IMG/VR virus record: IMGVR_UViG_3300022746_000001
Strand: one strand, 5' to 3'
Length of the DNA: 64,000 bases
Source: a virus
Lineage: Duplodnaviria; Heunggongvirae; Uroviricota; Caudoviricetes
The notes beneath the pieces were generated by a model, which was not told the DNA's origin, did no database searches, and saw nothing but the letters and a program-made list of their open reading frames with translations. Position numbers and translations under genes: made by a program. Below, in pieces: positions 300-56,122 of the stretch (within the stretch, counting starts at the first letter, position 1; the number at the start of each line of letters is the position of its first letter).

Positions 300-326
300 A
301 GTCACGACTGACTGAACTATAATCCT
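300..326 (+). promoter_or_regulatory. palindromic motif AGTCAC-GAC-TGACT followed by TATAAT, between divergent ParB-like and helicase genes
   Basis: read directly; member of repeated motif family. Confidence 0.5.
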
Positions 327-365
327 TATACAAAGACTTTGCAAGCCTTACAGAAGAGAAATTGG

Positions 366-1901
366 ATGACACAATCAGTAACCATCGCCTACAACGCAAC
401 CATTGCCAAATTGCATGAACCGACAAGACAAGCAAAACTGGCTGTGCAGCGGCTTGTTTCCTATCGCGTCGAAGGCGCAGAACACACCGGCGCGTTCAAA
501 ACCGGCAACTGGGATGGTCGCTCATCCTTCTTTGACTTCCGAAGCGGCACCTTTCCTGCTGGCTTCGTGAACTTTGTCGCCGCGCACCTCACCCGCGCCG
601 GCTACACCGTTCATCGCGTTCGAAAGCCCCTGCCCTTGCCACAAGGCCCAGAGAACCCAAAGGTCGATGAGTTTCCCGAAGACCCTCGCTACGACTATCA
701 GATGGAGGTAGTCAATCGGCTCTGCAAGCACGGCTCCATGATTGCGCAAGTAGCGACAGGTGGCGGTAAGTCTCGTATCGCGCGCCTGGCGTTCATGCGA
801 ATCAATCGCCCCACTCTGTTTCTGACAACGCGCGGCATTCTGATGTACCAAATGAAGGACACGTTCGAGACAGACCTTGGCGTGGCTTGCTCGGTGCTTG
901 GCGACGGTCAGTTTGGGCATGTCGGCCCCGACGGACGCCAGTACATTAAGAAAATGTCGGTGGGCATGGTGCAGACGCTGGTGTCGCGCCTTCAAGAGCC
1001 AAACCCCGACGATCCTGTGGACGTGCAAAACCGTCAGACCGCCATTCGCAACCAAACCATCGAGCTGCTTGGCAAATTCGAGTTCGTTATCGGCGAAGAG
1101 GCTCACGAAGCGTCGGGCAACAGCTATTACGAGATTCTGCGCCACTGCAAGAACGCTCACTACCGCTTGGCGCTAACTGCCACACCGTTCATGAAGGACG
1201 ACGAAGAGTCCAACATGCGTCTGATGGCTGCGTTCGGCCCTATCGGTATCAAGGTCACGGAGAAGATGTTGATCGACCGTGGCATCTTGGCGCGACCCAT
1301 CTTCAAATACCTGCCTCTGACCGTCAAACCCAACCACCTCATGCGCGGCGCCGGATGGCAAGCGGCGTACCGCCTTGGTATCGTTCAGAACGAGCAGCGT
1401 AACGGCATGATTATTGAAGAAGCCGCCCGCGCCGCGCGTTATGGCTTATCGACAATGATTCTCATCCAGCAAAAGAAGCATGGAGCGATTCTTGAGCAGG
1501 CGCTGAACGCGCGTGGTGTCAAAGCTCGGTTCATTGACGGTGACAGCGACCAAACAGAACGCAAACACGCGCTCAAGCAGCTCGCCAATCGTGAAATTGA
1601 TGTGCTGATAGGTTCGACAATTCTTGACGTTGGTGTAGACGTTCCTGCGGTCGGTATGGTGATCTTGGCCGGCGGCGGCAAAGCAGAGGTTGCCCTGCGT
1701 CAGCGTATCGGTCGCGGTCTGCGCGCCAAGAAGAAAGGCCCGAACATCGCCTTGATTGTGGACTTTGCCGATGACTTCAACATGCACCTGAAGTCTCATG
1801 CGCAGCAGCGCCACCAGATCGTGAAGGACACCGAGGGTTTCGGCGAGAATATCTTGAAGGCTGGCGCAGACTTTGACTACAAGGCTTTGGGGTTGATTTA
1901 A
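366..1901 (+). CDS. superfamily 2 DEAD/DEAH-type helicase
   Basis: VATGGGKS (Walker A), GEEAHEA (motif II), LTATPF (III), QRIGRGLR (VI); start moved to ATG 366 (track ORF begins at a TTG at 339). Confidence 0.8.
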   Translation: MTQSVTIAYNATIAKLHEPTRQAKLAVQRLVSYRVEGAEHTGAFKTGNWDGRSSFFDFRSGTFPAGFVNFVAAHLTRAGYTVHRVRKPLPLPQGPENPKVDEFPEDPRYDYQMEVVNRLCKHGSMIAQVATGGGKSRIARLAFMRINRPTLFLTTRGILMYQMKDTFETDLGVACSVLGDGQFGHVGPDGRQYIKKMSVGMVQTLVSRLQEPNPDDPVDVQNRQTAIRNQTIELLGKFEFVIGEEAHEASGNSYYEILRHCKNAHYRLALTATPFMKDDEESNMRLMAAFGPIGIKVTEKMLIDRGILARPIFKYLPLTVKPNHLMRGAGWQAAYRLGIVQNEQRNGMIIEEAARAARYGLSTMILIQQKKHGAILEQALNARGVKARFIDGDSDQTERKHALKQLANREIDVLIGSTILDVGVDVPAVGMVILAGGGKAEVALRQRIGRGLRAKKKGPNIALIVDFADDFNMHLKSHAQQRHQIVKDTEGFGENILKAGADFDYKALGLI

Positions 1902-2152
1902 TGTTGCAAAAACTGTGGCATGCCTTAGAATGTAAGTCATCAAAGACTTACTCCAAAGGTTCACACATGGGATATGCAATCGCTCTCAACCTTCTCATCA
2001 TCGCCTTCTTGAGTGGAGCGCTCTACCTCACAAGCAATCCGCTGGTGCTGTTCGGTCTGCTGCTCCTGAAAGAACTCCCTTATGGCTTGCTCGTACCGGA
2101 AGATGACGAGGAAGAAGGTAAACCTATGGGTTTCGTACACCCAGAAAAGTAA
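1901..2152 (+). CDS. small membrane protein (possible true start 1967)
   Basis: TAATG overlap with helicase stop; hydrophobic core AIALNLLIIAFLSGALYLTSNPLVLFGLLLL; acidic C-terminus. Confidence 0.4.
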   Translation: MLQKLWHALECKSSKTYSKGSHMGYAIALNLLIIAFLSGALYLTSNPLVLFGLLLLKELPYGLLVPEDDEEEGKPMGFVHPEK

Positions 2153-2261
2153 TACCTTTGAGTTGCAATCAAAACAAGTGCAACAAAAATCGTGCCAATT
2201 CTCAGAAAATAAGCGCGACGACCGTATAATCAAGCTCAGGATCATTTCTGAATACCTCCAT

Positions 2262-2288
2262 GCCCCGACACTCGGGGCTTTTTTTTGA
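2262..2288 (+). terminator. rho-independent terminator
   Basis: GCCCCGA-CACT-CGGGGC followed by T8. Confidence 0.7.
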
Positions 2289-2367
2289 ACTTTTTTGTTT
2301 GTATAAGGTTTGCGACAGTACAATACAACCATTCGCAATCATTTTGAAATTTTCACTGGAGAAAACC

Positions 2368-2646
2368 ATGCAAGAAGCTGAAGAAAAAGGCAAGCGCTAC
2401 GCTATCGTCGTCGAACAATCGGTACAGAACAAGCTGGCCGAGCTTGCCAAGCAGCACAAAATCTCTCAAGGCGCTGTTGTCGAAGAGTTGATGGGCTTGG
2501 TCAACACCGACGCACTGGCAAAAGCACTCGTTGCGCGCCGCGAACACAAGGTCTCAAACCGCAGCGGCAAGAGCGCAATCTTGAAGAAGCTCTCCAAGCT
2601 CAGTCCTGAGCAATTGGAAGCGCTGGCAGCTCAAATGAAGGTCTGA
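2368..2646 (+). CDS. ribbon-helix-helix-like DNA-binding protein (putative regulator)
   Basis: GGAGAAAACC RBS before ATG 2368; N-terminal beta strand KRYAIVVEQSV then helices, RHH-like. Confidence 0.5.
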   Translation: MQEAEEKGKRYAIVVEQSVQNKLAELAKQHKISQGAVVEELMGLVNTDALAKALVARREHKVSNRSGKSAILKKLSKLSPEQLEALAAQMKV

Positions 2647-2647
2647 C

Positions 2648-2812
2648 GTGACCTTAGAGACGTATGCGGGTGGGCCAGACGATCTGCCTACCTGCCCCAT
2701 CGACGGATGGCGGACTCAGACCATCGAGACCGACAAAGATGACGTGAACATCACGATCGAACTCTGTCCTCACTGTGGCAAGAAGTTTCGCTACATAGCG
2801 GAGGAAGAATGA
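2648..2812 (+). CDS. small zinc-ribbon protein (54 aa)
   Basis: GTG start 2 nt after upstream stop, ATGA overlap with next gene; CP...CPHCGKKF; below track size cutoff. Confidence 0.35.
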   Translation: MTLETYAGGPDDLPTCPIDGWRTQTIETDKDDVNITIELCPHCGKKFRYIAEEE

Positions 2813-3108
2813 ACACCCAAGACCAACCTAGCGCCCCCTCTTTTGAGTTTACGGGCGTTGCCAAGCGCAAGCTCGACGGCTTGCTGTCTGAAGGCTATGA
2901 GCTGAACGGCTACTGCTTTCAACAAACCTTAGAAGACGGAACCGTCAAGCGCGGAGCAATCACCGAGGGCGGAATGGTTCTTTGGTGGCACTCTGACCAC
3001 CCGCCTGTCAAGATTCCGTCTCGCATGACAGAAGACCCCTGCCCTGGCTGTCGCCCAGGCGTTGTCTGTCGCACCCCTCGCTGCGGACGACTCAAAACCC
3101 GCACCTAA
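2809..3108 (+). CDS. hypothetical Cys-rich protein
   Basis: ORF track; CPGCRPGVVCRTPRCG motif. Confidence 0.45.
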   Translation: MNTQDQPSAPSFEFTGVAKRKLDGLLSEGYELNGYCFQQTLEDGTVKRGAITEGGMVLWWHSDHPPVKIPSRMTEDPCPGCRPGVVCRTPRCGRLKTRT

Positions 3109-3126
3109 CACCCTCATAGCAGTGCC

Positions 3127-3369
3127 ATGACTGAAGCAGAAGACTGGGGCGAACTGTCCGAAGACGACATTCTGGAGCTTGTCGCGCCTACGCCCATACT
3201 GGTCGAACCCACAATTAACTACATCTGGGTGGCGCTCTACATAACGGAAGGTTGCAGCCTGCCCATGACCATGACTGGCTGCGACCGCAAACAAGTCATA
3301 AGTTGGGTGCGCGGCAGCTCCGCACTCGACCGAACCAAGCCAATTAAGCTGTACCGATTGGAATACTGA
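3127..3369 (+). CDS. hypothetical protein
   Basis: ORF track; same-strand operon context. Confidence 0.4.
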   Translation: MTEAEDWGELSEDDILELVAPTPILVEPTINYIWVALYITEGCSLPMTMTGCDRKQVISWVRGSSALDRTKPIKLYRLEY

Positions 3370-3578
3370 TGCCTGAACAACCACGCTATTGCTGCCACAA
3401 GTGTTTTCACAAAACAGGTGGCTTTCTTGACCGTATGCTGCTGTGCCCCGAGTGTGGCAACAAGCGCTGCCCCAAAGCGACCGATCACGATCTAGCCTGC
3501 ACGGACTCAAACGAGCCAGACCAGCCAGGCTCAATCTATGGTGGACGCCCCGTCGAGGGAGCAACCTCAGATGACTAA
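3369..3578 (+). CDS. hypothetical zinc-finger protein
   Basis: TGATG overlap with upstream; CCHKC...CPECGNKRC. Confidence 0.45.
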   Translation: MPEQPRYCCHKCFHKTGGFLDRMLLCPECGNKRCPKATDHDLACTDSNEPDQPGSIYGGRPVEGATSDD

Positions 3579-4579: not shown

Positions 4580-4996
4580 GCCACTCAGCTCGAAATTTTT
4601 TGCTTGTATAAGGATAGACAATGTCCCCATCGGGTCATTTTTCTGTCGATCATGGGGATTTTGGTCAAAAATGTCCTCATCGGGGCATTTTCCATTGGGT
4701 CTTACGGATTCGGAGCCGGCTGTATAAGGACGTGAACTTAGGGTCTGCCTGGCTGTATAAGGGGCGCTAGGGGAGGTGGAAAACGAGGAAGGGGTCGCCT
4801 CCAAACCGAAGCACTTTTTCTAGGACTTCGGTATTATTTCTCCAATGTTTACTTTACGGTAAGCGCGTCATGCACTAACCACAAACAATAAACAAAACCT
4901 ATTGCAACCGCTGCACAATCAATTAAATCAATCATTGTTTAAACCTTGTTTGTTTGGTAAGTGGTGCAAGCTGTAACGCTTGCACCGTGTCACTCA

Positions 4997-5665
4997 TTAA
5001 GCATAGAACGCGATAACCGCGCGCGCTGCGTCATTCTCTCGCATTGTGATTGCATCATTGTTTTTTTGCTTGATAACGTTCGCAAGGTTCAACGCTTTGA
5101 GCATCATACGTGTGCTGCTTGCTTGAGTGCTTGCAGTTGATTCGCTGCAATTGTGCAAGCGTTTGAGCGTTTGCACTTGCTCTGTCTCGCTGTATTCGAT
5201 TGATTTACAAATGCTCATGCGTGATTCTTTGTTATTGATTGTTTGCAGCTTAACCAGATTAAACAAAATCGAGTTAGTGTAACCATCAAAACCAGAACGC
5301 GCATTGTTTGCAATTGCGTAAAGCGCTTTGCGTACTTTTTGCAGTGCATACACTGCGAGAAAATCATTTTTTGATTCTGTCTTCAATACTGCTATTTGAC
5401 GCGCAAGCGCTTGCAAATCAATTTTGAGCGCTTCGCACTTGCTCAGAATTACCGCTGCGTTTGCATCGTCAAAAAAACGATATTCTGCTGTGAGCGTGTC
5501 ACGCTGGTTATCATTGTCTGCGTTTTCAATTCTGCGTTTGATAGCTGCTAAAATTGCGGTTTGTGCTGCTGCTGCTGTGTCTGCTGCTGCTGTAGTTGCA
5601 ACCTTGCTTTGCTTTGCTTTTTTAGCTGCTGTAGTTGCTGCTGTGTTTGCGTTTGCTTTGCTCAT
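4997..5665 (-). CDS. hypothetical protein with Ala/Lys/Thr-rich histone-H1-like N-terminus
   Basis: AAAGGTGAAAAC RBS before ATG 5665; low-GC codon usage unlike neighbours. Confidence 0.5.
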   Translation of the reverse strand: MSKANANTAATTAAKKAKQSKVATTAAADTAAAAQTAILAAIKRRIENADNDNQRDTLTAEYRFFDDANAAVILSKCEALKIDLQALARQIAVLKTESKNDFLAVYALQKVRKALYAIANNARSGFDGYTNSILFNLVKLQTINNKESRMSICKSIEYSETEQVQTLKRLHNCSESTASTQASSTRMMLKALNLANVIKQKNNDAITMRENDAARAVIAFYA

Positions 5666-5859
5666 GTTTTCACCTTTAAAAGTTTGGTTTTTGAAACTCA
5701 ATCAAAATCAATTGAGTGAACGTAGTATAAACCAAAAAACAATCAAAAACCACGCAAGCACAAAAAAAAGTTGATTGTTTTTTTAAATCGCCATCATAGC
5801 TAAAAACAATCACACAAAATGCTTGTTTTGTGGTATACGTGAAAAACAATCAAGTCTCC

Positions 5860-6200
5860 TATAAGACAGGAGACAACTCTCCTAGGAGACAGGACATGGG
5901 TCTCCTATAAGACATAAGACAGGAGACAGGATGCGGACGATTCTCATTTAGGCGCCGATGCGGATGATCCGCATTTGCGATGCCGACTCCAGCTCCGACC
6001 CACGCACTGCCCTCTAACCTCCTAGGCAGCCCCAACCAGAGTCCATGCCGTACTCCATGCTCCTAGGCAAGTCCAACCAAAGCCCCTGCCGTACCCAATG
6101 GCGATGAGTACCAGTGTCCTACCCGTACCCAACCAGTGTTCGACCCGTTCCTAGGCGTCATCACGCTGCATAAAAGGGTGTGAAATCCATTCACACCCCC
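5860..6200. repeat. repeat-dense non-coding block: TCTCCT...AGGAGA palindromes, ATGCGGA-TG-ATCCGCAT palindrome, 33-bp imperfect direct repeats starting CCTAGGCA, CTGCCGTACCCAATGG copies
   Basis: read directly. Confidence 0.7.
6165..6198 (-). terminator. rho-independent terminator
   Basis: GGGTGTGAA-ATCCA-TTCACACCC then TTTTAT on minus strand. Confidence 0.5.
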
Positions 6201-6211
6201 TGCTCTATCCG

Positions 6212-6388
6212 TTAACGCTCGTCGTACAGGCGAGGTGTTCGGCGTACCGAGTGACCCTGACGCAGCATCTCTAGCTCCACGTCTTCTTGCATTTGGTCGT
6301 AGAAGTCTTCCTGGTCGTCGAATCGCTCGACAAATTGGAAGGTGTTGTTCTCTGTTGGCACAGGGTTAGTTTGAGCAATGCGTGACAT
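6212..6388 (-). CDS. small acidic protein (58 aa)
   Basis: AGGAG RBS 7 nt before ATG; MSRIAQTNPVPTENNTFQFVERFDDQEDFYDQMQEDVELEMLRQGHSVRRTPRLYDER; followed by hairpin terminator; below track cutoff. Confidence 0.45.
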   Translation of the reverse strand: MSRIAQTNPVPTENNTFQFVERFDDQEDFYDQMQEDVELEMLRQGHSVRRTPRLYDER

Positions 6389-6406
6389 GAGGTACTCCTG
6401 AAGCGG

Positions 6407-6661
6407 TTATTGCTTTGCGCTTGGTGTGGGGTACTGCATGCCGAACTCATCGGTTCGCTCGTCGTCTAGATCGCTATGCCCAAGAACATGCAAGCAATTG
6501 AGAATGGACGACATAGTGAATCCACCAGCGACATACAGACCGAACAACCACAGAGCGCCACCTCCATGTTGTTCAATTGCTTTGATGCAGGCGTATGCGA
6601 TTGCGGAACAGACCGTGATGGTCATTAAGGTGAGAACATAAACAGTTTGGCGATTGTTCAT
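6407..6661 (-). CDS. small membrane protein (2 TM)
   Basis: ORF track; hydrophobic segments. Confidence 0.5.
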   Translation of the reverse strand: MNNRQTVYVLTLMTITVCSAIAYACIKAIEQHGGGALWLFGLYVAGGFTMSSILNCLHVLGHSDLDDERTDEFGMQYPTPSAKQ

Positions 6662-8640: not shown

Positions 8641-8646
8641 CGAATT

Positions 8647-12498: not shown

Positions 12499-12574
12499 CT
12501 TTCGCCTTTCGGTGCGTTGTTTCGATATATGTATTGTCACAACTGACTTATGGACAAACAACGCAAAACACAGG

Positions 12575-14453: not shown

Positions 14454-14547
14454 TGCTCACTCCTTGCCTTGTTGTTTCGATAGTTCTATTGTCACGACCG
14501 AACATTGGATAAACAACGTCAGTCGTGACTTACCCTGCAAGATCGCC

Positions 14548-16480: not shown

Positions 16481-16744
16481 ATTTGCTCTCCGTTTGCTGT
16501 CAAAATCGACAATTGAAGTATTTCAAGCCAGTCTAGGACTAGCAAGTCACTTGTGACTTATCCCTACTATATCGCCTGTTTCCTTGTTTGAACGGGGACG
16601 AAGCGATTAGAGCGTGCCTCCGGTGCGGTTGATACCGAGGTAGCACCTTGTCATGGAAACACAAGGCCAACGTGTTTAAAGTGGTCGCAAACCAGCGCCT
16701 GCTGGCTCGTGTATGTGCGTTTGTATAGCGTCAGGAACCACAGA

Positions 16745-20715: not shown

Positions 20716-20912
20716 AGAAAAGCTCCATGTGTTTAGTTGCTGATGACTTAGTGTAGAAACCAGCAACAGGGGTAGCAATACATGCCTACGAAGTCTCCAA
20801 GCACAAAGCAATGCGCCATTAAAGTGACACTATGGTGCTTAGTGCATCTTTAATGGCGCATTACAAGCGCGTTCTAAGCGCTTGCCTGATGTGTCATTAC
20901 TGACTTATGCGG

Positions 20913-23570: not shown

Positions 23571-23663
23571 ATCTGCTCCTTTGAAAACTTACTCTTGCAG
23601 TTAGCCTGTATGTCACTACTGACTAACTGCAATGGTAAGCACTCAGCTCAGGACAAACAAGCG

Positions 23664-26273: not shown

Positions 26274-26302
26274 GGTTTTACCTTTCTGTCAGTGGTGACT
26301 TA

Positions 26303-27223: not shown

Positions 27224-27307
27224 ATCTACTCCTTGTGTCAGTCATTAGCGACTGATTGAATTATTCAAAACGAACAGTGGGCTATCAACCGATAGCGCAG
27301 GGAACCG

Positions 27308-27472: not shown

Positions 27473-27538
27473 ACGAAACAATGCCTATTTTGAGAATCAC
27501 TAAGTCAGTGGTGACTTTGATTATAGTGGTCGAAGGCG

Positions 27539-28992: not shown

Positions 28993-29071
28993 AAACTCCT
29001 CGCATATTTGCTGTCGATAATTGATTGTAGAAACAGAATCACGGGCAAGCTAGTCACCCGTGACTGATTCC

Positions 29072-33056: not shown

Positions 33057-33140
33057 AGATTTCTCCGGTAGTTAAGTCACTAATGACTTTGAGATTATAG
33101 AGAGCGAAAACTTATAGAAGACGGCAATGCGTCAAGTCCC

Positions 33141-34111: not shown

Positions 34112-34170
34112 TCAATCTTTCAATGTATGAATCTTATATAAGTTTTCGCGGGTTTGCAAGTCACCACTGA

Positions 34171-34341
34171 CTTATTTTAAAGATCGCCTGATTATTTCTT
34201 CTTGAAAGCTGCCTCATGCTCAGAATAGCGTTCCAATGACTCGCGCAATGTTGTGAACATCGCGATAGCTTGGCGCTCTCTTTGAGCTTCTAAGACGGGG
34301 TCAATCACGTCCTCTTCAGTGTCGGTTTGGTTCTCAGTCAT
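34171..34341 (-). CDS. small acidic protein (56 aa)
   Basis: GGAG RBS 5 nt before ATG; MTENQTDTEEDVIDPVLEAQRERQAIAMFTTLRESLERYSEHEAAFKEEIIRRSLK; below track cutoff. Confidence 0.4.
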
Positions 34342-36860: not shown

Positions 36861-36937
36861 AAAACTCCTTGTTGTGTTGTTAATTTGGGGGACGGTGATT
36901 CTATTGCAGTCACGAGTGACTTACCATATAAGGACGA

Positions 36938-38713: not shown

Positions 38714-38740
38714 GTAGTCACGGGTGACTTATTCTCTCAG
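38714..38740 (-). promoter_or_regulatory. palindromic motif ATAAGTCAC-CCG-TGACTACAAT upstream of 38230-38676
   Basis: read directly; about 30 nt upstream of RBS. Confidence 0.5.
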
Positions 38741-41768: not shown

Positions 41769-41789
41769 ATTTCTCCAGTCAGTTGTGAC

Positions 41790-42203
41790 TTATGCCTTAC
41801 GGTAAAAAATGTGCTTGCCAAGCACAGCGGTCTTAACCAAGTCATGACGCCACACTGGACGCGCATCTTTGGTGTGATAAAAAGTTGCTCCACCATGAGT
41901 GAAGTCGCCGATCTTGCCAGCTAGAACGACCTCTGAAATTCGCACTGCTTTTTTCCATGCGTAGTCATCTTGAGGCAGACCGTTATCTTTCAGATAGAAG
42001 CGGCCATCTTTCTGCTTAACCATCTTCGTTGTCCAAGAGAATTGACGCTTGGCTGTCACAGTCTTGCAGACTTCACTTGGCTTGCCGGCGCGGTTCATTG
42101 TGACTTGCGCGACAGCGTACTGCCCTGGAATCATTTCAGAGCGCGCCTCATGGTAGACGTTCAGTGCGAGGCATAACAGTGCGGATTCGAGAATCATTTT
42201 CAC
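41790..42203 (-). CDS. SleB/CwlJ-family cell wall hydrolase (Hydrolase_2)
   Basis: ALNVYHEARSE...QFSW matches SleB catalytic-domain signature. Confidence 0.65.
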   Translation of the reverse strand: MKMILESALLCLALNVYHEARSEMIPGQYAVAQVTMNRAGKPSEVCKTVTAKRQFSWTTKMVKQKDGRFYLKDNGLPQDDYAWKKAVRISEVVLAGKIGDFTHGGATFYHTKDARPVWRHDLVKTAVLGKHIFYRKA

Positions 42204-45861: not shown

Positions 45862-45892
45862 TGCATTTTCATTATATGTCAGGAGTGACTTA
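45862..45892 (-). promoter_or_regulatory. palindromic motif AATAAGTCAC-TC-CTGACATATAAT upstream of SSB gene
   Basis: read directly; includes a perfect TATAAT. Confidence 0.5.
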
Positions 45893-46721: not shown

Positions 46722-46805
46722 GGTTACTCCTTGTGTGTCATAAAACTCTGACGCTTGATATTAGCGTCTGAATCGCGGGGTTGTAAGTCACCTTTGACTT
46801 ATCTT

Positions 46806-49800: not shown

Positions 49801-50261
49801 TGGTTTGCCATGTGAAAGACGTTATACATATCGCCAGTGCTGATCGACACGCCCTCAAGCTCAAGCACGTCCTCTAAGCCGACACGGGCGTGATAGTAGA
49901 AGTAGTCTTTGGAGTAACCCTTTGACAGCAGCTTAATGAGCGAGTGAATGCCAGCGTCATTCTGGACGTAGACCTTCAGCGCGTAACTGGGATTAGGCTT
50001 CTCTACTTCGCCCGAAGCCTTTGATGGTTTGCGGTAGGTTGGGTCTTGATAGACGCGAAGACGGCAGCCGATGATAGGCTTGATGCCTGCTTTCTTGCAG
50101 CGGTTGGTAAAGTCAACCATGCCATGCAGGGACATAGTGTCTACCAAAGCCACAGATTCGTAACCTTTCTCTTTAGCCTCAGAGACAAGGTGTTCAATCT
50201 GTAGCATGGACTCGCCAATACTAAAGTCGCTTCTGGCAGACAATGCGTGATTCAAATACAT
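46806..50261 (-). CDS. dnaE: DNA polymerase III alpha subunit (DnaE-type) with C-terminal degenerate family-4 UDG-like domain
   Basis: PHP domain N-terminus; GIIVGPGRGSVGGSLVAYLIGITDVDPIRFNLLFERFINPER; C-terminal about 190 aa aligns to family-4 UDG (CEGC, FMVVSDCPT, IVALGSS) with catalytic motifs altered. Confidence 0.85.
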   Translation of the reverse strand: MYLNHALSARSDFSIGESMLQIEHLVSEAKEKGYESVALVDTMSLHGMVDFTNRCKKAGIKPIIGCRLRVYQDPTYRKPSKASGEVEKPNPSYALKVYVQNDAGIHSLIKLLSKGYSKDYFYYHARVGLEDVLELEGVSISTGDMYNVFHMANHAEIVRKLADKFKTYIELTPINTPLFDTLNAKAMLLLDDQPGIGLPLVTYPIFYRDDNCAESLEVLAAITSSSKMDVSYRPIQYVQDFSIHEPKHIVDRVKGASKRIATFDGVSAPNLWVEGLKNAEELVNECAYTFSKLPVSLPKMADNEFMALGKKCLEGWKRRFGREVLGHKPDSTEIKVYQERLQYELGVLKKMGFAGYFLLVEDLVVWAKNNGIIVGPGRGSVGGSLVAYLIGITDVDPIRFNLLFERFINPERLDLPDADLDFMSSKRHMVIEYLSAKYGTDRVAGISNYSTLASASALRDTGRVYGLNGIELTATKLVPKEHGQSFTLSEAAKAVPEIDKFKDERPGIWKHALHLEGAMRAFGRHAAGVVVAGEPLVNRAVVETRGDDTTPTVSWDKRVVEDWGLVKMDILGLSTLDVLEIARQYIHDRHGVEIDYLDLPLEEADIMESFGRGDTTGVFQFESPGMKKLLRDLAVGGTLTFEDITAATALYRPGPMDSGLMDDYVAIKQGIRSPYYDHPSMEPALRQTYGVIVYQEQVMQVAVDLAGFTRAEADHLRKAMGKKDKDKMAEMREQWNAGCLKNVGMDERTAGGIFDKIEAFAGYGFNRSHAVEYSIISYWTMWVRCRYPAEYFAACMSIVAEDKLPGLVTDAREYKIEVMPPDINLSTHRYTIPNNSTILAPFSAVKGVSENTALRIVELRERNRSWGVVKTKKKRDGTVEDVWEMDEAAPVKGRFDTPQEFELAASQPGSKVNARVVENLKLIGAYASIDKTELSPLHFSRRKAQMELLPGLIIDTVKADRSADLSAGFLRTKIIEVVQDYKKCEGCTLAGEPHPTVRCKTNVRFMVVSDCPTWQEEKKDKLLEGDAAQYVKLAIKNAGLNVAEGYYTTLVKAKKQDKFLTNEQINGCSAYIDREIELIKPPIIVALGSSTIKKFVPGLKGGAAEVAGKAFYDPKLDATIVCGLNAQQIGFDPDKQLILDEAFRKVAEILS

Positions 50262-50989: not shown

Positions 50990-51643
50990 TTAGAAATGAT
51001 TTTCCATTGTGGTGTTCTCCAACTTACGCAGCTCGGCTAATGCACTGCGAACTTGCGCCTCTGTGACACCGCCCAACATCACGATGAATTGCCCTACATA
51101 GCGTGGCGATACATGGTTCATGAAGCGGCGCTCATAACCGAGACTTTTGGCGTACTGAATGTGCGCTTCGGCTTTTGCTAACTCTTCCAAGAACTCCTTC
51201 GGTGGCTCAATGACCCACTCCATAATCAAGAACGCCAGAGGTGAAAGTTGTTCACGAATCTGAGCCACGAACTCGCTACAGGCGTAGATTGCTTCAGGTG
51301 TCGCGTTGTCCTTCATCAGCACTTCTTCGAGATTGAAGTCTTCGCCGTTGGACTTGTTGTTCATCTCCTCGATGCTGACAACGCCATAGCGAAGACGCTC
51401 GTCAATCATCTTTTGCGCCCAAGAGTTAATCTTGTTGAAGGCAGCCATGTAGTAGTAAGTCGTGAATCGGTTGCCCAAACTCGCGTCGAACCCCTCGTAT
51501 GCCTTCAGGAAGACGAGAGACATTTCTTGGAACACATCGTCATAGTCCAAACCAATGCCTGCCGCCTGAAGTCGAGCGTAGCCCTTCTTCGAGACGGCGT
51601 GGACAAGACCTTTGTTCTCCTTGTAGAACTGGTCTACGTTCAT
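50990..51643 (-). CDS. sigma-70 family (ECF-like) RNA polymerase sigma factor
   Basis: region 2 DDVFQEMSLVFLKAYEGFDASLGNRFTTYYYMAAFNKI; C-terminal HTH VMLGGVTEAQVRSAL. Confidence 0.65.
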   Translation of the reverse strand: MNVDQFYKENKGLVHAVSKKGYARLQAAGIGLDYDDVFQEMSLVFLKAYEGFDASLGNRFTTYYYMAAFNKINSWAQKMIDERLRYGVVSIEEMNNKSNGEDFNLEEVLMKDNATPEAIYACSEFVAQIREQLSPLAFLIMEWVIEPPKEFLEELAKAEAHIQYAKSLGYERRFMNHVSPRYVGQFIVMLGGVTEAQVRSALAELRKLENTTMENHF

Positions 51644-51645
51644 GA

Positions 51646-52836
51646 TTAGCTTCCGAAGATGCGTTGAGCCAAGCCGTCTACAACTTCGCGGTCGATCTTG
51701 GACAACTTGTTGATGAACGACAGAGTCAAGCCCTGACGGAACGAACCGCGCTTGACGCCAATCTTGGCTGCGTAGATCAAAGTACGAGGCGAAATCACAT
51801 CGCTGATCTTTGCGCCGTCATACGCATCACGGACGAGACCTGCGAAGTCCACCAGCTTGTCGGCATCTTCTTTGGTCAAGCCAACTTGATTCTGGAGAAT
51901 CTGCGACTCGGAAGCCTTCTTCATGTACTGCTTGTGGATCACCATGCCGAAGCGGTCATAGTTCGCAGAGTTCTGAAGGTTTGTGCCTTGATACAGACCC
52001 GTCTCGTCGCCCGAACCGTTGGTGTTGCCAGTAGCGCAGAAGCGGAAGTTCGGGTGAGGCTTGATAAGACGATTCTCAGCATCGGCTTCTTTAATCATCA
52101 GTGACTTACCTTCGAGGACAGCCTGATAGACCGATAAGACAGAAGGCAACGCGAAGTCGTATTCGTCAGCGACATACATCCAACCATTTTGCATAGCGAG
52201 TGGAAGTGGGCCAAGTTCGAAGACGGTTTGACCGCCCTTCACCGTCCACTGCCCAACGATGTGTGATTCTTCCGTGTTGACTGTGTGCTGGACGCGAATC
52301 GTGGGTCGGTTAGTACGCGCGCCGATTTGTTCATACAGCTCAGTCTTGCCAGAACCTTTGTGACCCCACACGTAAGACGGAATGTTCAACTCAAGTGCCA
52401 GGATGACGTTTTTCAATTCGTCAATGTCGTACACGTAGTTGTCCGAAGGTGTCGGAACCATGTCGCTGAACTCGCCAGCGGCAAGTACGGAAATTGGAAT
52501 GGCTTCGCCCTTAGAACTCAATGCAGACTTGAGTTTGCCGAGATTGAAGGTTTCGTGAAATGCTTTTTTCATCACACCATTTCGGGGAGCAAGAGCGGCC
52601 ACATTCGTGCCAGCCATCTCCACTTTGGTGGTTGCTGCCGCTGCGGGTGCTGCGGTAGGATTTGTCGCGGCATGTTCCGCGATCTTCTTCTGCGCCAGTT
52701 GAGACAGCAGAGGTGCGTCTGGATAATCCATCGCATACTGCTCAACAGTCATTTCTGGGTGTGCATCCTTCAAGTGCAACTTGATGGCGTGAACATGCGC
52801 TCCACAGATGGCACATGCGATCTTTTCGTCTGACAT
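51646..52836 (-). CDS. cobS: CobS-like AAA+ ATPase (MoxR family)
   Basis: Walker A VWGHKGSGKTE; paired with downstream vWA protein as in phage CobS/CobT pairs. Confidence 0.7.
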   Translation of the reverse strand: MSDEKIACAICGAHVHAIKLHLKDAHPEMTVEQYAMDYPDAPLLSQLAQKKIAEHAATNPTAAPAAAATTKVEMAGTNVAALAPRNGVMKKAFHETFNLGKLKSALSSKGEAIPISVLAAGEFSDMVPTPSDNYVYDIDELKNVILALELNIPSYVWGHKGSGKTELYEQIGARTNRPTIRVQHTVNTEESHIVGQWTVKGGQTVFELGPLPLAMQNGWMYVADEYDFALPSVLSVYQAVLEGKSLMIKEADAENRLIKPHPNFRFCATGNTNGSGDETGLYQGTNLQNSANYDRFGMVIHKQYMKKASESQILQNQVGLTKEDADKLVDFAGLVRDAYDGAKISDVISPRTLIYAAKIGVKRGSFRQGLTLSFINKLSKIDREVVDGLAQRIFGS

Positions 52837-52911
52837 AGGTCTCTCCTTAAAACGTCAAAATTGACAAAACTAAATTTCTCGAACAGTTCAAATGTTAATA
52901 CCTAAATTGCG

Positions 52912-52945
52912 GGGATGCAAGTCACTTGTGACTTACCCTGCAACA
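52912..52945 (-). promoter_or_regulatory. palindromic motif GTAAGTCAC-AA-GTGACTTGCAT upstream of CobS-like gene
   Basis: read directly. Confidence 0.5.
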
Positions 52946-52953
52946 TTGCCAAG

Positions 52954-55089
52954 TTACGCTGCAAGCAAAAGCTGGCGCAACTCTTTAATCACAACGCTTG
53001 GCAACTGCTCCACGTTGTTCAACACAAGACTCTTTGGATAGAACTCGCGAACGGCCTCCGATTGAATGCCGATGCCGATGATCTTTACGCCTGAGTTGGC
53101 AATGTCACGCACCTTCTCGCGCAAGTGGCGACGCAGGTCGGCAGAGTTGCCGGCAGCCGCTGGATAACCGTCCGACAGCACCAGCATGATCTTGCCCTCT
53201 TCGCGACGCGCCATTAGACGACGAGCGGCCACCTCGATAGATTCGCCATCGACGTTACTGCGAAGGATGTTTGTGTTGGGAAGCCAACCGAAGCGCTCCT
53301 TCACGTCTGTAGTCATGCGTTCCTCGTAACCCTTGAGAATCGGCATGTAGATGCCTTCCATACGAGAGAAGCCACGACCCATCTTGCTCTGCTGCTCACG
53401 CATATCCTTCTGAGCGCCGCCAATGTCCTTCGTGGTGAAACAGATTACTTCATTCTTAATGCTCAAACGCTCCAACACGGCTGCCAGCGCATACGCAGCC
53501 TGACAAGCGGTGTGAACCTTCTCACCAGCCATCGAGCCAGAGGCGTCAACGACGAGTTCGACTGCCACATCCTTGCTGGTTGATTCCTGCTTGCGGCTAA
53601 AGACACGGTTATCGTTCACTGCCAGGCGAGACAGGTTTGGTGCGTGGAGACGACCGGAGCGGTGTCCGTGTGATCGGGTGGCGAGAGAACGTGCAGCGAT
53701 GGCGCGCTCAAGGTCTTTCTGCAATGGCGCGACCATGTGTTCCGTCTTCTCTATCAGCTTCTTGGTCATGGCTGCGTTGTAGCCGGAGCCGATTGGTAGC
53801 TTCTCCACAACGTCATAATCTTTCGTGAAGATCAGGTAATCGGCATTCTCCGCAACCGCGCTGGTGGCGTCGCTGATGACTTTGCTCATAGCTTCGTCGT
53901 AGCCGTTAGCACTCTCCTTGTCGAGCGCTTCCCATACTGGCGCAGAGTCGCCAAGCTCAACATCTTCTTCGTCTGAGGCGGTCGCACTTGGGGACGATTC
54001 GTCATCTACAGGGTCGGGTTCAGAAGGCTCCTCTTCCTCTTGCTCTGCGATCTCAGGCTCTGGCTCCGATTCGTCTTCTGATTCTTCAGGTGCTGGCTCT
54101 GGCTCTGATTCGTCTTCAGATTCTTTTTCTTCTGGCTCTTTCTCAGGTTCAGACTTCTCAGGCTTGGACTCTTTTTCTTTCTCGTCTTCTTTCTCGCCAG
54201 GCGCCTCTTCTTCTTTTTCTTCTTTCTCTTTTTCGCCCTTGCCCTTGCCTTTACCCTTTGAAGGAGTCTTTTCTTCTTCGCTTTTTTCTTCTGGCTCTTT
54301 CTCAGGTTTGGTCTTGCCGCTGCCAGAAGACTTGTCTTTTTTGCCAGAGGTTGTCTTGGTGCCGATACCGCCCGACTTGCTAGAACCACCCTTCTCGCTC
54401 TTCTCCTCACCCTTGTCGCCACCTGACGAGCCTTCGCTCATGCGCTTACCAATCTCGGCAGCCAGCTCAAAACATTCTTCGGTAGAGGCGGCAGCTTCGA
54501 TCTTCGGGGCCAAGTCTTTAATGCGTTCATACACAGGGGCGACCGTTGTCCAGTGGTCTTTCATGAACTCTTGGAAGACCATCTGACCCGACATAGCGCG
54601 AATCATTGGAACCATTAGCGATTCGATAACGCCGTTCACGTCACCGGCAGCAGCTTTCTCTTGCAAGCGTGGCTTGACGAACTTGTCCAGGTAGAACTGT
54701 CCAGTAACAGACAGGTTGTGCGCAGAGCCTTGAAAGCGCTTTGCCATGCACTTCTCGATGCGAGGGTCTTCAAGTGCATTAAGCAAGTAACCGATGCGCT
54801 TACCTTGCGCCATCGCCTTGCTCATGACGGTGAACTCGGTAAAGAGGATGTGAGCAACCTCGTGATCCAAGAAGCCTTGAATGGCGTTGCACAGGTCTTC
54901 ACCAGCGTTGTCTGGCAGATATGGCAAGTTGACAACCAGCGGCACACCGCGATGGTCGGCACGAACGTATGCGCTAACACCCTGTTGGGTGACTTTGATG
55001 CCCTTACCGGAGAGCATCTGTGTGATCTTCACGACGGACTCGCGAAGGATAAAAACTCGATCATTCTTCATTGTCGCTCCTTTAGTCAT
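52954..55089 (-). CDS. cobT: CobT-like von Willebrand factor A domain protein with long acidic/Lys-rich low-complexity region
   Basis: vWA MIDAS DASGSMAG; long low-complexity stretch KGKGKGEKEKEEKEEEAPGEKEDEKEKESKPEKSEPEKEPEEKESEDESEPEPAPEE. Confidence 0.7.
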   Translation of the reverse strand: MTKGATMKNDRVFILRESVVKITQMLSGKGIKVTQQGVSAYVRADHRGVPLVVNLPYLPDNAGEDLCNAIQGFLDHEVAHILFTEFTVMSKAMAQGKRIGYLLNALEDPRIEKCMAKRFQGSAHNLSVTGQFYLDKFVKPRLQEKAAAGDVNGVIESLMVPMIRAMSGQMVFQEFMKDHWTTVAPVYERIKDLAPKIEAAASTEECFELAAEIGKRMSEGSSGGDKGEEKSEKGGSSKSGGIGTKTTSGKKDKSSGSGKTKPEKEPEEKSEEEKTPSKGKGKGKGEKEKEEKEEEAPGEKEDEKEKESKPEKSEPEKEPEEKESEDESEPEPAPEESEDESEPEPEIAEQEEEEPSEPDPVDDESSPSATASDEEDVELGDSAPVWEALDKESANGYDEAMSKVISDATSAVAENADYLIFTKDYDVVEKLPIGSGYNAAMTKKLIEKTEHMVAPLQKDLERAIAARSLATRSHGHRSGRLHAPNLSRLAVNDNRVFSRKQESTSKDVAVELVVDASGSMAGEKVHTACQAAYALAAVLERLSIKNEVICFTTKDIGGAQKDMREQQSKMGRGFSRMEGIYMPILKGYEERMTTDVKERFGWLPNTNILRSNVDGESIEVAARRLMARREEGKIMLVLSDGYPAAAGNSADLRRHLREKVRDIANSGVKIIGIGIQSEAVREFYPKSLVLNNVEQLPSVVIKELRQLLLAA

Positions 55090-55171
55090 TAGTGACTGAC
55101 AGACGTAATGTAAGCAATGACTTCAGGAGGTGCAATGCTATTGACGAAATCCCCTGAGACGTTCCCAAGGT

Positions 55172-55195
55172 AAGAAAAAGGGGCCGAAGCCCCTT
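55172..55195 (-). terminator. rho-independent terminator
   Basis: AAGGGGC-CGAA-GCCCCTT then TTTCTTACC on minus strand. Confidence 0.5.
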
Positions 55196-55200
55196 GATAG

Positions 55201-55389
55201 TCAGGCAAAGATGATGGCTGACCGGCCTATGATTGTCGAAACGATATGTAGAGCGCCCAATGAGGGGTGGTCGCCAAACTGGATAACAGAGACGCCCAGG
55301 TCTATCGTGGACTGGATGGTCATGGATTCAAGAATTTCGGCACATTGCTCTAAAGACAACTCCTGAGATTTGGTTTCTTGCACTAGCAT
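55201..55389 (-). CDS. hypothetical protein
   Basis: strong AAGGAGAGG RBS. Confidence 0.45.
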   Translation of the reverse strand: MLVQETKSQELSLEQCAEILESMTIQSTIDLGVSVIQFGDHPSLGALHIVSTIIGRSAIIFA

Positions 55390-55569
55390 TACCTCTCCTT
55401 TTTGATGAGAACGCCCGTAATTATAGTCACTGACCGCTTAGTTATTGCTAACTGCAAAAAATAGAAATGTGTGATAAATTGCCAGTAAAACAAACTCACT
55501 ACTTATTTAACCCGCGTTTATAATTTAGAAGTCAGCTCGACGTTTGAGCTAAATTTTTGGGAGAAAGCT

Positions 55570-56016
55570 ATGGCTATCACTAAAGCTGTGCGAGTCACTC
55601 CACCGACCGCAAGTAAGCCGAAGAATGTTGCCGAATACATATCGTGGCAGATCAACCTGTGTGGCAAGAAGCAAATCGAAATCGCTGAAGAAGTCGGCTT
55701 TGATAAGCCGAACGTCATCACAATGATTAAGCAGGGAAAGACCAAGGTTCCGATCAACAAGATTGGAAAAATGGCGAAAGCACTCAATGTTGACCCCATC
55801 TTCTTCTTGAGGATGTGCATCAATGAGTACATGCCAGACATGATGGAAGCCATTACCGCCATCATAAACCAACCCGTTTTTACGGCCAATGAAATTGATT
55901 TCATTGAGGAAATGAGAGCTTCGAAGATAGTTAACCCGAAGCTGGAGACCAAAGATGATCGCGCCAGATTCAGGGAGTTCTTGAAGACACTGAAAAGCGA
56001 CAATGGCGGAAACTGA
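55570..56016 (+). CDS. XRE-family helix-turn-helix transcriptional regulator (repressor-like)
   Basis: HTH QIEIAEEVGFDKPNVITMIKQGKT; GGGAGAAAG RBS; AT-rich divergent promoter region upstream. Confidence 0.7.
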   Translation: MAITKAVRVTPPTASKPKNVAEYISWQINLCGKKQIEIAEEVGFDKPNVITMIKQGKTKVPINKIGKMAKALNVDPIFFLRMCINEYMPDMMEAITAIINQPVFTANEIDFIEEMRASKIVNPKLETKDDRARFREFLKTLKSDNGGN

Positions 56017-56050
56017 GCAAAGTTTCGTCACTACTGAATAAGGCACCTTC

Positions 56051-56076
56051 GGGTGCCTTTTTTTTCAACTAAGGAT
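56051..56076 (+). terminator. rho-independent terminator
   Basis: AGGCACC-TTCG-GGTGCCT followed by T8. Confidence 0.7.
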
Positions 56077-56122
56077 TTAGTGACTATCATATAAATTCAC
56101 TCGTGACTTATCAACAAGCCAA

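Follow-up and report, generated by a model that had tools for sequence, protein, structure and literature searches.

Why does one short palindrome recur in the gaps between genes throughout a tailed-phage genome, and which protein, if any, reads it? We addressed this question in a 64,000-nucleotide stretch of Caudoviricetes DNA (hereafter the window) and in related phage loci. The motif had been described in an earlier note, made from the letters alone, as a regulatory element linked to transcription that heads transcription units, including the tRNA array, and our analysis agrees with that description.

Definition and distribution of the palindrome

The core of the element is AGTCA-N4-TGACT, with the fuller form T-n-AGTCA-nTAn-TGACT-n-A. 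The earlier note had written it as AGTCAC followed by a spacer of two or three nucleotides; the arrangement AGTCAC-NN-GTGACT is real and contains the core, while a search of the window for the N3-spaced version gave 0 matches, and the spacing is therefore fixed. Allowing at most one mismatch, AGTCACNNGTGACT matches 13 times in the window against 0.17 expected, a number reached by none of 100 shuffles. A position weight matrix, which had been proposed as the way to check the motif, gave a similar picture: an 18-bp matrix trained on 331 sites from related phages only, at a cut-off of at least 14 bits, found 24 sites in the window compared with 0.3 in shuffles. Nineteen of these 24 are intergenic by our gene calls; the JGI gene calls place a twentieth, at 1935, between genes as well. 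Four lower-scoring copies lie within or at the edges of coding sequences (30480, 52093, 59139 and 60758).

Intergenic enrichment, on which the earlier note had staked the motif, is borne out in 39 related phage loci, whose 59.8 kb of intergenic DNA contain the exact core 107 times and whose 582 kb of coding sequence contain it only 3 times. AGTCA-N4-TGACT is the top-ranking 5-N4-5 palindrome in relatives with 50-63% GC and 63-83% DnaE identity, and it is also found in a Paraburkholderia contig. Twenty of the 24 positions listed before are true copies, one of which had been placed at 26258 and is located at 26287. The three at 11333, 14488 and 15281 belong to a different element, the promoter form TTGTTTGTCC-N13-GACAAT, and position 30571 is weak (9 bits by the matrix). 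The extended consensus given at the time, TTTGTCCATAAGTCAC...GTGACAATA, is a hybrid of the palindrome and this TTGTTTGTCC-N13-GACAAT promoter motif. One intergenic copy, at 1935-1948, had been overlooked.

Phasing with promoter hexamers

The spacing had been thought not to fit sigma-70 geometry. The palindrome is not itself a promoter, nor is it generally an RNA hairpin; rather, its position is fixed to the base relative to ordinary sigma-70-type -35/-10 hexamers, in four registers, with its centre near -41.5, -27.5 or -18.5, or just past the start site. Of 199 unique sites, 54 have a -10-like hexamer starting at offset +13/14, 20 at +22 and 56 at +36/37, with a further cluster at offsets -21 to -11, while most remaining offsets hold 0-5 sites each. 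The same phasing is seen in the exact-core set, where the median is 1 per offset, and in 190 sites from portal-centred late-region loci. Judging from their match to the consensus, these hexamers are probably functional promoters.

In the window, five sites on the minus strand are centred at -41.5 of a predicted promoter. These are 16545..16558 (23.5 bits), whose final T also begins the -35 hexamer of TTGCTA-N17-AATACT; 29052..29065 (19.8 bits; TAGCTT-N17-TACAAT); 34159..34172 (23.8 bits), at the promoter of the 8-tRNA array (TTGCAA-N17-TAAGAT, 34131-34159); 46786..46799 (23.4 bits; TTACAA-N17-TAATAT), just downstream of dnaE; and 52920..52933 (23.5 bits; TTGCAT-N17-TAACAT, 52892-52920), which heads the gene run CobS, sigma, a 230-aa protein and DnaE, and lies within a covarying outer inverted repeat. 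The minus-strand site 14517..14530 (16.5 bits) is directly upstream of the -35 hexamer in TTGTTT-N17-GACAAT, with its centre at about -42.5.

Other sites fall between or against the hexamers. The plus-strand copy AGTCACGACTGACT at 300..313 (23.4 bits) occupies a promoter spacer upstream of a helicase gene (366-1901); TATAAT begins 18 nt after the palindrome start, which puts the centre at about -23.5. On the minus strand, 36908..36921 (20.0 bits) is likewise in a spacer, ahead of a ribonucleotide reductase gene and with TAGAAT starting 18 nt after the palindrome start, and 12535..12548 (15.3 bits) lies within the spacer and -10 hexamer of TTGTTT-N17-GACAAT, centred at about -15.5. Two minus-strand sites abut the -10 hexamer, 38716..38729 (19.0 bits; TGAC-TACAAT; centre -18.5) and 45877..45890 (17.5 bits; CTGACA-TATAAT; centre -19.5), the latter upstream of a gp32-like SSB gene whose orthologs in relatives have promoters with the same layout. 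The TACAAT or TATAAT that had been noticed directly after the palindrome is the -10 hexamer of one of these registers.

Start-site-proximal sites include the plus-strand copy AGTCATCAAAGACT at 1935..1948 (17.3 bits), behind TTGCAA-N16-TAGAAT, and five on the minus strand: 23611..23624 (17.5 bits; centre about +7.5), behind TTGTTT-N17-TACCAT; 27240..27253 (16.2 bits; centre about +6.5), behind TTGATA-N17-AATAAT, a promoter also recovered in a consensus scan with 10/12 matches; 27503..27516 (24.3 bits), 3 nt past a TATAAT; 33075..33088 (24.7 bits), after TATAAT and downstream of the tRNA array's terminator (33171-33149); and the CobT site, 55084..55097 (23.0 bits; centre about +9.5), behind TTGCAC-N17-TACATT (55107-55135). 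The CobT promoter and site are conserved in about 20 relatives, and in several relatives two copies flank this promoter. The copy at 56095..56108 (16.7 bits), between the terminator of an XRE gene and the AlpA gene, can be read in both directions, being start-site-proximal behind TATCAT on the plus strand and in the spacer of TTGATA-N17-TATGAT on the minus strand.

A few minus-strand copies come without a promoter. The one at 41777..41790 (22.2 bits) is 8 nt before the SbcD start codon and, having no promoter, is taken as an intra-operon site; the upstream gene ends with the TAA that flanks this copy, and the layout recurs in about 10 relatives. The copy at 26287..26300 (17.1 bits), 13 nt before a start codon and with no clear promoter, is an intra-operon or start-site-proximal site. 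A weaker copy at 20892..20905 (12.9 bits) has no convincing promoter near it and lies 176 nt before the next gene.

A candidate repressor and its switch region

We propose, with a probability of about 0.72, that the AGTCA-N4-TGACT sites are operators of a phage-encoded dimeric HTH regulator, most probably a 148-aa XRE/434-type protein acting as the master repressor of the prophage. This protein probably binds the palindromes, and binding would repress. Many ordinary promoters of the host sigma-70 type would drive the phage genes, almost every one with one operator copy placed so that a dimer on it would obstruct RNA polymerase: next to or over the -35 hexamer (centre -41.5 or -27.5), in the spacer beside the -10 hexamer (centre about -18.5), or across the start site or early transcribed region (centre +3 to +10). 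The few promoter-less copies between operon genes could serve as roadblocks. One protein could silence a 106-kb temperate virus through about two dozen operator-covered promoters.

The candidate gene (55570..56016, plus strand) encodes an XRE/Cro-C1-type HTH followed by a helical C-terminal domain. The earlier note had counted several small DNA-binding proteins as possible readers of the motif, and the XRE-type protein is predicted to be the best of them. Its HTH_3 match (E 2e-4, 21.6 bits) is slightly below the 23-bit cut-off; in the AF2 model (pLDDT 80), the N-domain superposes on 434 Cro, 434 repressor and P22 C2 with an rmsd of 1.6-2.0 Å, and the whole chain resembles the Stl, DdrO and SinR repressors with TM-scores of about 0.46-0.48 and a high rmsd. 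The protein has no S24 peptidase (autocleavage) domain. Its recognition-helix stretch KPNVITMIKQGKTKVP is nearly invariant among 35 homologues, down to 32% identity, which parallels the invariance of the operator; in every subclade with an AGTCA palindrome the helix hardly changes.

The XRE gene is transcribed divergently from the lytic genes. The divergent neighbor, a 62-aa gene (55201..55389, minus strand) conserved in 15 relatives, is cro-like by position only, as its product has no Pfam or PHROG match. In eight relatives (L011, L012, L019, L020, L022, L028, L032 and L121), the gap that separates the XRE gene from its small divergent neighbor holds at least one palindrome, mostly two or three, one of which abuts a -10 hexamer. 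The promoter of the 62-aa gene carries a full palindrome in relatives, whereas in the window (55420..55435, minus strand; TATAAT) only the right half-site, GTGAC, is kept. Upstream of the XRE gene, the degenerate variant ACTCACTACTTATT (55494..55507, plus strand) ends 11 nt before a TATAAT (55519-55524); it is a candidate for a weak autoregulatory operator, and similar variants occur in L124 and L125. Since the switch-region operators of the window are half-sites or degenerate, the lambda-like tripartite arrangement is seen in the relatives and not here. The phage is temperate: it carries a tyrosine integrase gene (56244..57518, minus strand; Arm-DNA-bind_3, Phage_int_M and Phage_integrase domains) and an AlpA gene, and a relative sits as a prophage inside a 450-kb Paraburkholderia MAG contig.

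The palindrome and the XRE recognition helix vary together across subclades, in which the half-sites are AGTCA, AGTAA, TCAGT and TAAGT. For example, subclades with the helix NQ-NMVSFIVRGKSKLP or TPNMLTLMKSGTSKVP have AGTAA-N4-TTACT, and the subclade with RPNILSMILNGQTRLP has TCAGT-N4-ACTGA; these alternative 5-N4-5 palindromes occupy the same promoter positions as the AGTCA sites. The co-variation is confounded by phylogeny, because any phage-encoded binder would track it, and there are exceptions: L213 retains AGTCA despite N48T and Q55L, and L225 retains M52 and K54, yet has no exact copy.

Alternative readings and known systems

Sites centred at -41.5 or -42.5 make up 56 of the 199 unique sites and 39 of the 98 exact-core sites, and this share of roughly 30-40% at -41.5, the classical class II activator position, counts against the repressor reading. 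The same protein might repress at spacer and start-site positions and activate from the -41.5-centred sites, giving a temporal switch rather than simple silencing, which we consider unlikely. Lambda and 434 CI at PRM, and FNR and CRP at class II promoters, are precedents for such activation; FNR-type boxes have the same 5-N4-5 geometry as the sites here, the last base of the palindrome is the first base of the -35 hexamer, and late-region promoters in L040 (149 and 4803) are of the -41.5 class. However, the -35 hexamers at these sites are good and conserved (TTGCAT, TTGCAA, TTGCTA and TTGAAA), unlike those of activator-dependent promoters, and the genes they precede are lytic ones (CobS to DnaE, tRNAs, capsid), which a prophage repressor should not activate. 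One protein at four registers is most simply explained by steric repression. It is distinctly improbable that the binder is a host (Burkholderiales) global regulator or another phage protein, such as AlpA or the product of the 62-aa gene. A second phage protein could share the operators, as lambda Cro does, and locus L023 keeps the motif without an XRE gene; yet with a single host factor the sequence should stay the same, whereas the palindrome differs between phage subclades, and the 62-aa protein has no recognisable DNA-binding domain. We know of no LexA, CRP or FNR box that AGTCA-N4-TGACT matches.

A short mRNA hairpin acting as a processing site, 5' stabiliser or translational operator, as the earlier note had suggested from the RBS-abutting copies at SbcD and CobT, is very unlikely. 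The start-site-proximal palindromes would occupy about +3 to +16 of the transcript, adjoining the RBS in these two cases, and at the CobT-CobS junction the palindrome is the tip of a longer hairpin with a covarying outer stem. Against this, the stem is short (5 bp, 4-nt loop, about -3.5 kcal/mol), its five pairs are invariant with no compensatory change or wobble-biased variation, flanking pairing is not generally added (median z about 0, with 9.5% of sites below -2), and no Rfam family matches. Most copies precede the predicted start site (over half of all sites) or, in some cases, lie between divergent promoters; the CobT copy is better read as a start-site-proximal operator and the SbcD copy as an intra-operon site. 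Recognition by the phage sigma factor (50990-51643), also raised before, or by another phage RNA polymerase component, with the palindrome as a self-contained promoter, is extremely improbable, even though most transcription units have the motif at their head, the phage carries a sigma-like gene (Sigma70_r2 E 1e-5; phrog_351) and the flank is stronger upstream (T at -2, A at -1) than downstream. This asymmetry is accounted for by TAA stop codons to one side of the site and, to the other, by -35/-10 hexamers that overlap it. Moreover, the site is dyad-symmetric, its distance to the gene is variable (8 to >100 nt, bimodal), it takes four registers relative to good sigma-70-type hexamers, and the sigma factor averages only 39% identity across loci whose motif is identical.

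Returning to the repressor reading, a dispersed-operator strategy is already known from P1, L5 and lambda/434, and here it would operate in an undescribed phage group. In P1, likewise large and temperate, the C1 operators overlap promoters of replication, recombination and regulatory genes, and C1 is not known to be a 434-type protein. As we propose here, one repressor serves many genome-wide operators in P1, 22 of which have been reported (PMC8546580). The P1 operators are asymmetric 17-mers (ATTGCTCTAATAAATTT), whereas ours are 14-18-bp palindromes; the candidate binder here has a Cro/C1-type HTH, and late and structural promoters carry the operator too. The L5/Cluster A repressor silences the prophage from >20 sites genome-wide, at promoters and in short intergenic spaces (PMC9283540). 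The promoter-less intra-operon copies (41777 and 26287) resemble its "stoperators", but an L5 site is an asymmetric 13-mer that a monomer binds and that works in one orientation only, whereas the sites here are symmetric and mostly coincide with a promoter instead of lying inside transcription units.

Lambda, 434 and P22 CI-Cro share with our system the Cro/C1-type fold (434 Cro, rmsd 1.6 Å), dyad-symmetric 14-mer operators with an A/T-preferring centre, and a repressor gene divergent from the lytic genes, with mostly two or three intergenic operators in the relatives. In contrast, our system has dozens of operators rather than two clusters and a candidate repressor that lacks an S24 autocleavage domain, and the switch-region operators of this window are degenerate. 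SaPI Stl, DdrO and SinR, the best whole-chain fold matches, carry the HTH at the N-terminus and an all-helical domain behind it. Their inactivation does not proceed through RecA-stimulated self-cleavage: partner proteins inactivate Stl and SinR, and a protease inactivates DdrO. We identified no such partner, antirepressor or protease here. The restriction-modification controller (C) proteins C.AhdI, C.BclI and C.Esp1396I are small XRE HTH dimers with folds similar to that of the XRE protein, and they can both activate and repress. The GACT/AGTC tetranucleotide also occurs in their sites (PMC3351150). These C-boxes, GACT-N3-AGTC, are everted relative to AGTCA-N4-TGACT and occur once per restriction-modification operon, whereas the palindrome here is genome-wide.

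A palindromic element in the intergenic regions

The core of the repeated motif is a fixed 5-N4-5 palindrome, AGTCA-N4-TGACT. With at most one mismatch allowed, AGTCACNNGTGACT gave 13 matches in the window against 0.17 expected, a number that none of 100 shuffles reached. An 18-bp matrix, trained on 331 sites from relatives only and applied at a cut-off of at least 14 bits, found 24 window sites against 0.3 in shuffles. Of these, 19 are intergenic by our own gene calls, and the JGI gene calls add a further one, at 1935. The near-palindromic motif that an earlier note had read directly from the sequence is therefore real, and 20 of the 24 positions listed there are true copies; 30571 is weak, and a second motif, TTGTTTGTCC-N13-(G/C)ACAAT, accounts for 11333, 14488 and 15281. 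The spacing of two to three nucleotides given in that note did not hold, since the N3-spaced version has no match in the window and only the N4 core recurs, and its extended consensus proved to be a merger of the palindrome with the second motif. A full-text search for the motif sequence found no occurrence in the searchable literature.

From 260 instances, taken in the window and in its relatives, the logo is a-T-(A/C)-AGTCA-n-t-A-n-TGACT-(a/t)-a, or T-n-AGTCA-nTAn-TGACT-n-A, a dyad-symmetric site of about 14-18 bp, as expected of Cro/C1 operators. Part of the "TA" signal on the upstream side comes from TAA, the stop codon of the gene before, and the downstream flank is an overlapping -35 or -10 hexamer. 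Four matrix matches of 14.7-16.3 bits (30480-30493, 52093-52106, 59139-59152 and 60758-60771) lie within coding sequences or at a gene junction, one of them within the CobS gene, and may be chance occurrences or internal roadblock sites.

Among 39 loci of related phages centred on DnaE, AGTCA was the top 5-N4-5 palindrome in most of those longer than 20 kb; the loci with AGTCA on top have DnaE identities of 63-83% and a GC content of 50-63%. The proposed enrichment outside genes was borne out, with 107 exact copies in 59.8 kb of intergenic sequence as compared to 3 in 582 kb of coding sequence across the 39 loci. The density in 80 portal-centred late-region loci (0.17 copies per kb) equals that in the replication loci, and the late region adjoining the window also carries copies, at 149, 2797 and 4803 of locus L040. 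With its 24 sites in 64 kb, most of them in short gaps between genes, the element resembles the dispersed networks of more than 20 repressor sites over a genome. A palindrome that remains invariant over such divergence, with no compensatory changes, argues for a conserved protein that recognises the sequence itself.

Position relative to promoters

In the relatives' loci, the motif and the next start codon are separated by either 8-25 nt or about 35-100 nt, a bimodal distribution in which the gap falls below 8 nt only at a few copies that run into a start codon by chance. Aligning the sites per orthologous gene explained the two modes as promoter-relative layouts. At CobT, for example, the palindrome lies at the start site, 7-10 nt beyond a conserved promoter TTGC(A/G)C-N17-TA(C/T)A(A/T)T, and several relatives carry a second copy immediately upstream of the -35 hexamer. 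No strong fixed-distance signal beyond the core appeared in the logo, because four promoter registers are mixed in it; these were separated by a histogram of the offsets of -10-like hexamers from the palindrome start at 199 unique sites. At 54 sites the offset is +13/14 (TGAC-TATAAT), which places the palindrome in the spacer, centred at -18.5; at 20 sites it is +22, with the palindrome over the -35 hexamer (centre -27.5); at 56 sites it is +36/37, where the palindrome and the -35 TTGCAN share a T, the last of the one and the first of the other (centre -41.5). A broad cluster from -21 to -11 is start-site-proximal, with centres at +3 to +10. The remaining offsets mostly hold 0-5 sites each, and the same peaks recur in the exact-core set, where the median is 1 per offset, and in 190 late-region sites.

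In the window, the copies starting at 14517, 16545, 29052, 34159 (tRNA array), 46786 and 52920 are centred at -41.5, those at 300, 12535, 36908, 38716, 45877 and 56095 (as read on the minus strand) lie in spacers, and those at 1935, 23611, 27240, 27503, 33075, 55084 and 56095 (as read on the plus strand) are start-site-proximal. The copies at 20892, 26287 and 41777 have no promoter within reach and are candidate elongation-block (stoperator-like) sites. On the evidence of these registers, the palindrome is itself no promoter; it overlies predicted promoters of the ordinary sigma-70 type, placed so that a protein bound to it would be expected to meet RNA polymerase. A scan with the canonical sigma-70 consensus, uninformative on its own, gave fewer sites than in shuffles. 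Inspection by eye of the right half-site as a -35 with a -10 17 nt downstream, and of the upstream flank as a -10 hexamer, gave inconsistent results across sites.

The second motif is a conserved promoter family with sigma-70 geometry, (c)TTGTTTGTCC-N13-(G/C)ACAAT, that is, TTGTTT-N17-GACAAT. Its six intergenic copies all lie between 11.3 and 23.7 kb on the minus strand (11349-11358, 12552-12561, 14507-14516, 15301-15310, 18772-18781 and 23651-23660), and its extended -35 block GTTTGTCC suggests a regulator or sigma factor of its own. A further block, GGCGATnTTnCAGGG, is shared on the minus strand by 14533-14547, 15327-15341, 16562-16576 and 52936-52950, directly past the stop codon of the upstream gene. 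It lies immediately left of the palindrome in three of the four cases and occurs without a palindrome at 15327, a pattern that suggests duplicated or shuffled promoter cassettes.

The stretch 4580-8701 is gene-poor, with 1.37 kb (7336-8701) devoid of convincing open reading frames, and holds many short repeats of CCTAGG, GTATAAGG and TGTCTCCT. Three sigma-70-like promoters lie in it, and immediately behind each comes CACTCGATTTTGAGTG or a variant of it, an inverted repeat (minus-strand hairpins at 5696-5718, 6681-6696 and 7352-7367). The AGTCA palindrome was not found at any of these three promoters, and the genes they serve may escape the predicted repressor or be under a second regulator.

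A candidate repressor and its predicted operators

The motif is well explained as a genome-wide set of candidate repressor operators, and the candidate binder is the XRE protein, a 148-aa product of 55570-56016 (plus strand). Its gene is the only one in its stretch that runs against the flow of transcription. Among the loci extending to this point, 20 have kept it, in every case divergent from a small gene (62 aa, 55201-55389 on the minus strand in the window; cro-like by position only) that is followed by CobT. The intergenic region between the two holds at least one palindrome, and mostly two to three, in L011, L012, L019, L020, L022, L028, L032 and L121; the rightward promoter has one of these copies against its -10 hexamer, and L020 has one across the -35 region of the XRE promoter, so that the predicted layout in the relatives is lambda-OR-like. 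In the window and its nearest relatives, these copies are reduced to a half-site (55420-55435) and a degenerate variant (55494-55507).

The XRE protein has a Cro/C1-type HTH domain, as seen in an HTH_3 match (E 2e-4; 21.6 bits, slightly below the Pfam cut-off of 23 bits) and in an AlphaFold (AF2) model (pLDDT 80), whose N-terminal domain superposes on 434 Cro, 434 repressor and P22 C2 with an rmsd of 1.6-2.0 A and a target-normalised TM of about 0.8. The whole-chain model resembles Stl, DdrO and SinR, and the best PDB sequence match is 8bny, an "immunity repressor protein" (E 0.004). A Peptidase_S24 (LexA-like autocleavage) domain was not found in the protein, and its C-terminal half is all-helical in the model. 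The family has about 118 members, all from this kind of phage or prophage, and KPNVITMIKQGKTKVP hardly varies among them even where overall identity drops to 32%. The XRE protein is the probable immunity determinant of the clade.

Searching IMG/VR with the XRE recognition-helix peptides returned only AGTCA-type phages; more distant relatives were reached by loci centred on CobS, using a CobS profile. Where the XRE gene was retrieved among these subclades (L199, L206 and L211), the recognition helix differs. The main clade combines helix KPNVITMIKQGKTKVP with AGTCA-N4-TGACT. L197-L205 and L207-L209, with helix NQ-NMVSFIVRGKSKLP, have no AGTCA copy, and L199 shows AGTAA-N4-TTACT; L206 pairs TPNMLTLMKSGTSKVP with the same AGTAA-N4-TTACT, and L211 pairs RPNILSMILNGQTRLP with TCAGT-N4-ACTGA. 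L218 also belongs to the AGTAA-N4-TTACT group. The variant palindromes keep their positions, abutting ATAAT, before CobT and before CobS, and a portal-defined sister clade (L113-L120) has TAAGT-N4-ACTTA inside promoter spacers. This is the pattern expected of heteroimmune repressor/operator pairs; the co-variation is confounded by phylogeny and imperfect at L213 and L225. The GCTAG "palindromes" of L229 were discarded as operators, being a tandem-repeat tract of about 500 bp (2990-3480) composed of GCTAGCTAGC or GATAG-type short repeats upstream of the CobT region, with no counterpart in the window.

Other recognisers fit these observations less well. Binding by a host factor is unlikely because the palindrome sequence switches between phage subclades. 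A promoter read by the phage sigma factor, as the earlier note had considered, should be asymmetric and at a fixed distance from the start, whereas this element has dyad symmetry, stands in four different registers to the sigma-70-type hexamers and can be anywhere from 8 to more than 100 nt away from a gene; the sigma factor itself is poorly conserved (39% mean identity), and this reading is inconsistent with the data. The same note's alternative of an RNA hairpin is weak as a general role: the stem would have 5 bp and about -3.5 kcal/mol, none of its five pairs varies on both sides, the flanks generally add no pairing (median z about 0), the majority of sites lie upstream of the predicted start, and Rfam matches are tRNAs only. 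The exception is the CobT-CobS junction (52905-52955), where the palindrome is the tip of a longer hairpin with orthologous sites in about 20 loci (e.g., L011 6515, L032 6785 and L022 6744). Its outer stem of 6-12 bp varies in sequence between phages and keeps its complementarity, with z of -2 to -6 versus shuffled flanks; in the CobS-upstream set, RNAalifold on an ungapped alignment recovered the inner 5-bp stem only, the outer stem shifting register by 1-2 nt. The right arm lies within the CobS promoter spacer and no U-tract follows; this hairpin is possibly a terminator-like or mRNA-end element.

About 30-40% of sites are centred base-exactly at -41.5, which would suit a bifunctional master regulator that activates from this position (tRNAs, CobS to DnaE, terminase and capsid) and represses promoters with spacer or start-site copies (helicase, SSB, RNR, CobT and the cro-like gene). 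However, the -35 hexamers behind the -41.5 sites are good (TTGCAT, TTGCAA and similar), not poor as class II FNR/CRP-type activation expects, the genes they serve are lytic, and the remaining sites sit at repressing positions; we consider such dual control improbable. If it were true, one 148-aa protein would set the timing of all lytic functions in a 106-kb phage, and the operator at the tip of the CobT-CobS hairpin could couple DNA-level with RNA-level control.

By analogy with known systems, the candidate operators would form a network of an already known mechanistic type. P1 C1 has 22 dispersed asymmetric operators (PMC8546580), and for L5-type repressors the number of asymmetric operators and stoperators exceeds 20 (PMC9283540). 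A network of the P1 C1 and L5 gp71 kind would be expected to have asymmetric sites, orientation-dependent action and a monomeric repressor, whereas the site here is a palindrome. The 434 and lambda CI-Cro systems resemble this one in their fold, in having a palindromic operator and in the divergent arrangement of the genes, although the S24 autocleavage domain of 434-type repressors was not found in the XRE protein. C-proteins have the same fold and sites with a GACT/AGTC tetranucleotide (PMC3351150) in the opposite arrangement: the C-box GACT-N3-AGTC is everted and duplicated upstream of the C gene, while AGTCA-N4-TGACT is inverted and genome-wide. Genome-wide operator dispersal, with asymmetric sites in P1 and L5, is predicted here with a classical palindromic dimer-type operator. 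The half-sites AGTCA, AGTAA, TCAGT and TAAGT would represent a natural series of immunity specificities, usable for an HTH recognition code and for defining immunity groups, and could yield orthogonal repressor/operator pairs for betaproteobacteria.

The phage and its clade

The window encodes a UvsW-like helicase, class II RNR, SbcCD, DnaE, a sigma-like factor, CobS- and CobT-like proteins, DNA and RNA ligases, RecA, a gp32-like SSB, guanylate kinase and eight tRNAs, as well as a tyrosine integrase, an AlpA-type protein and the XRE-type HTH protein. The window comes from a JGI metagenome contig of 105.7 kb, Ga0228703_1000066, on which the terminase, portal and capsid module begins about 6 kb left of the window. 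An exact-match look-up with the protein of the window's last gene gave no record. When 20 kb were compared with phage isolates by megablast, tRNA matches alone emerged; in the phage collection searched, the closest isolates by DnaE, at about 44% identity, are Rhizobium RHEph10-like phages and Pseudomonas phage nickie. Relatives of 100-114 kb are numerous in IMG/VR. One relative, L121, is embedded in a Paraburkholderia MAG contig of 450 kb, and a second comes from a betaproteobacterial MAG; therefore the clade is temperate and infects Betaproteobacteria. The present data provide a predicted promoter and operon map for this uncultivated clade of temperate Burkholderiales phages of about 105-115 kb.

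DnaE (Pol III alpha, 46806-50261, minus strand) carries a C-terminal domain of the uracil-DNA-glycosylase superfamily (PF03167, residues 999-1100), and DnaE of L125 has the same architecture. The AlpA-type gene (56123-56380, plus strand) and the integrase gene (56244-57518, minus strand), both with strong Pfam matches, converge with an overlap of about 137 nt. Adjoining the integrase start, GAATCCCTCCGTCTCCGCCA at 57742-57761 resembles a tRNA 3' end and probably represents the attP core, with a tRNA gene as the integration target.
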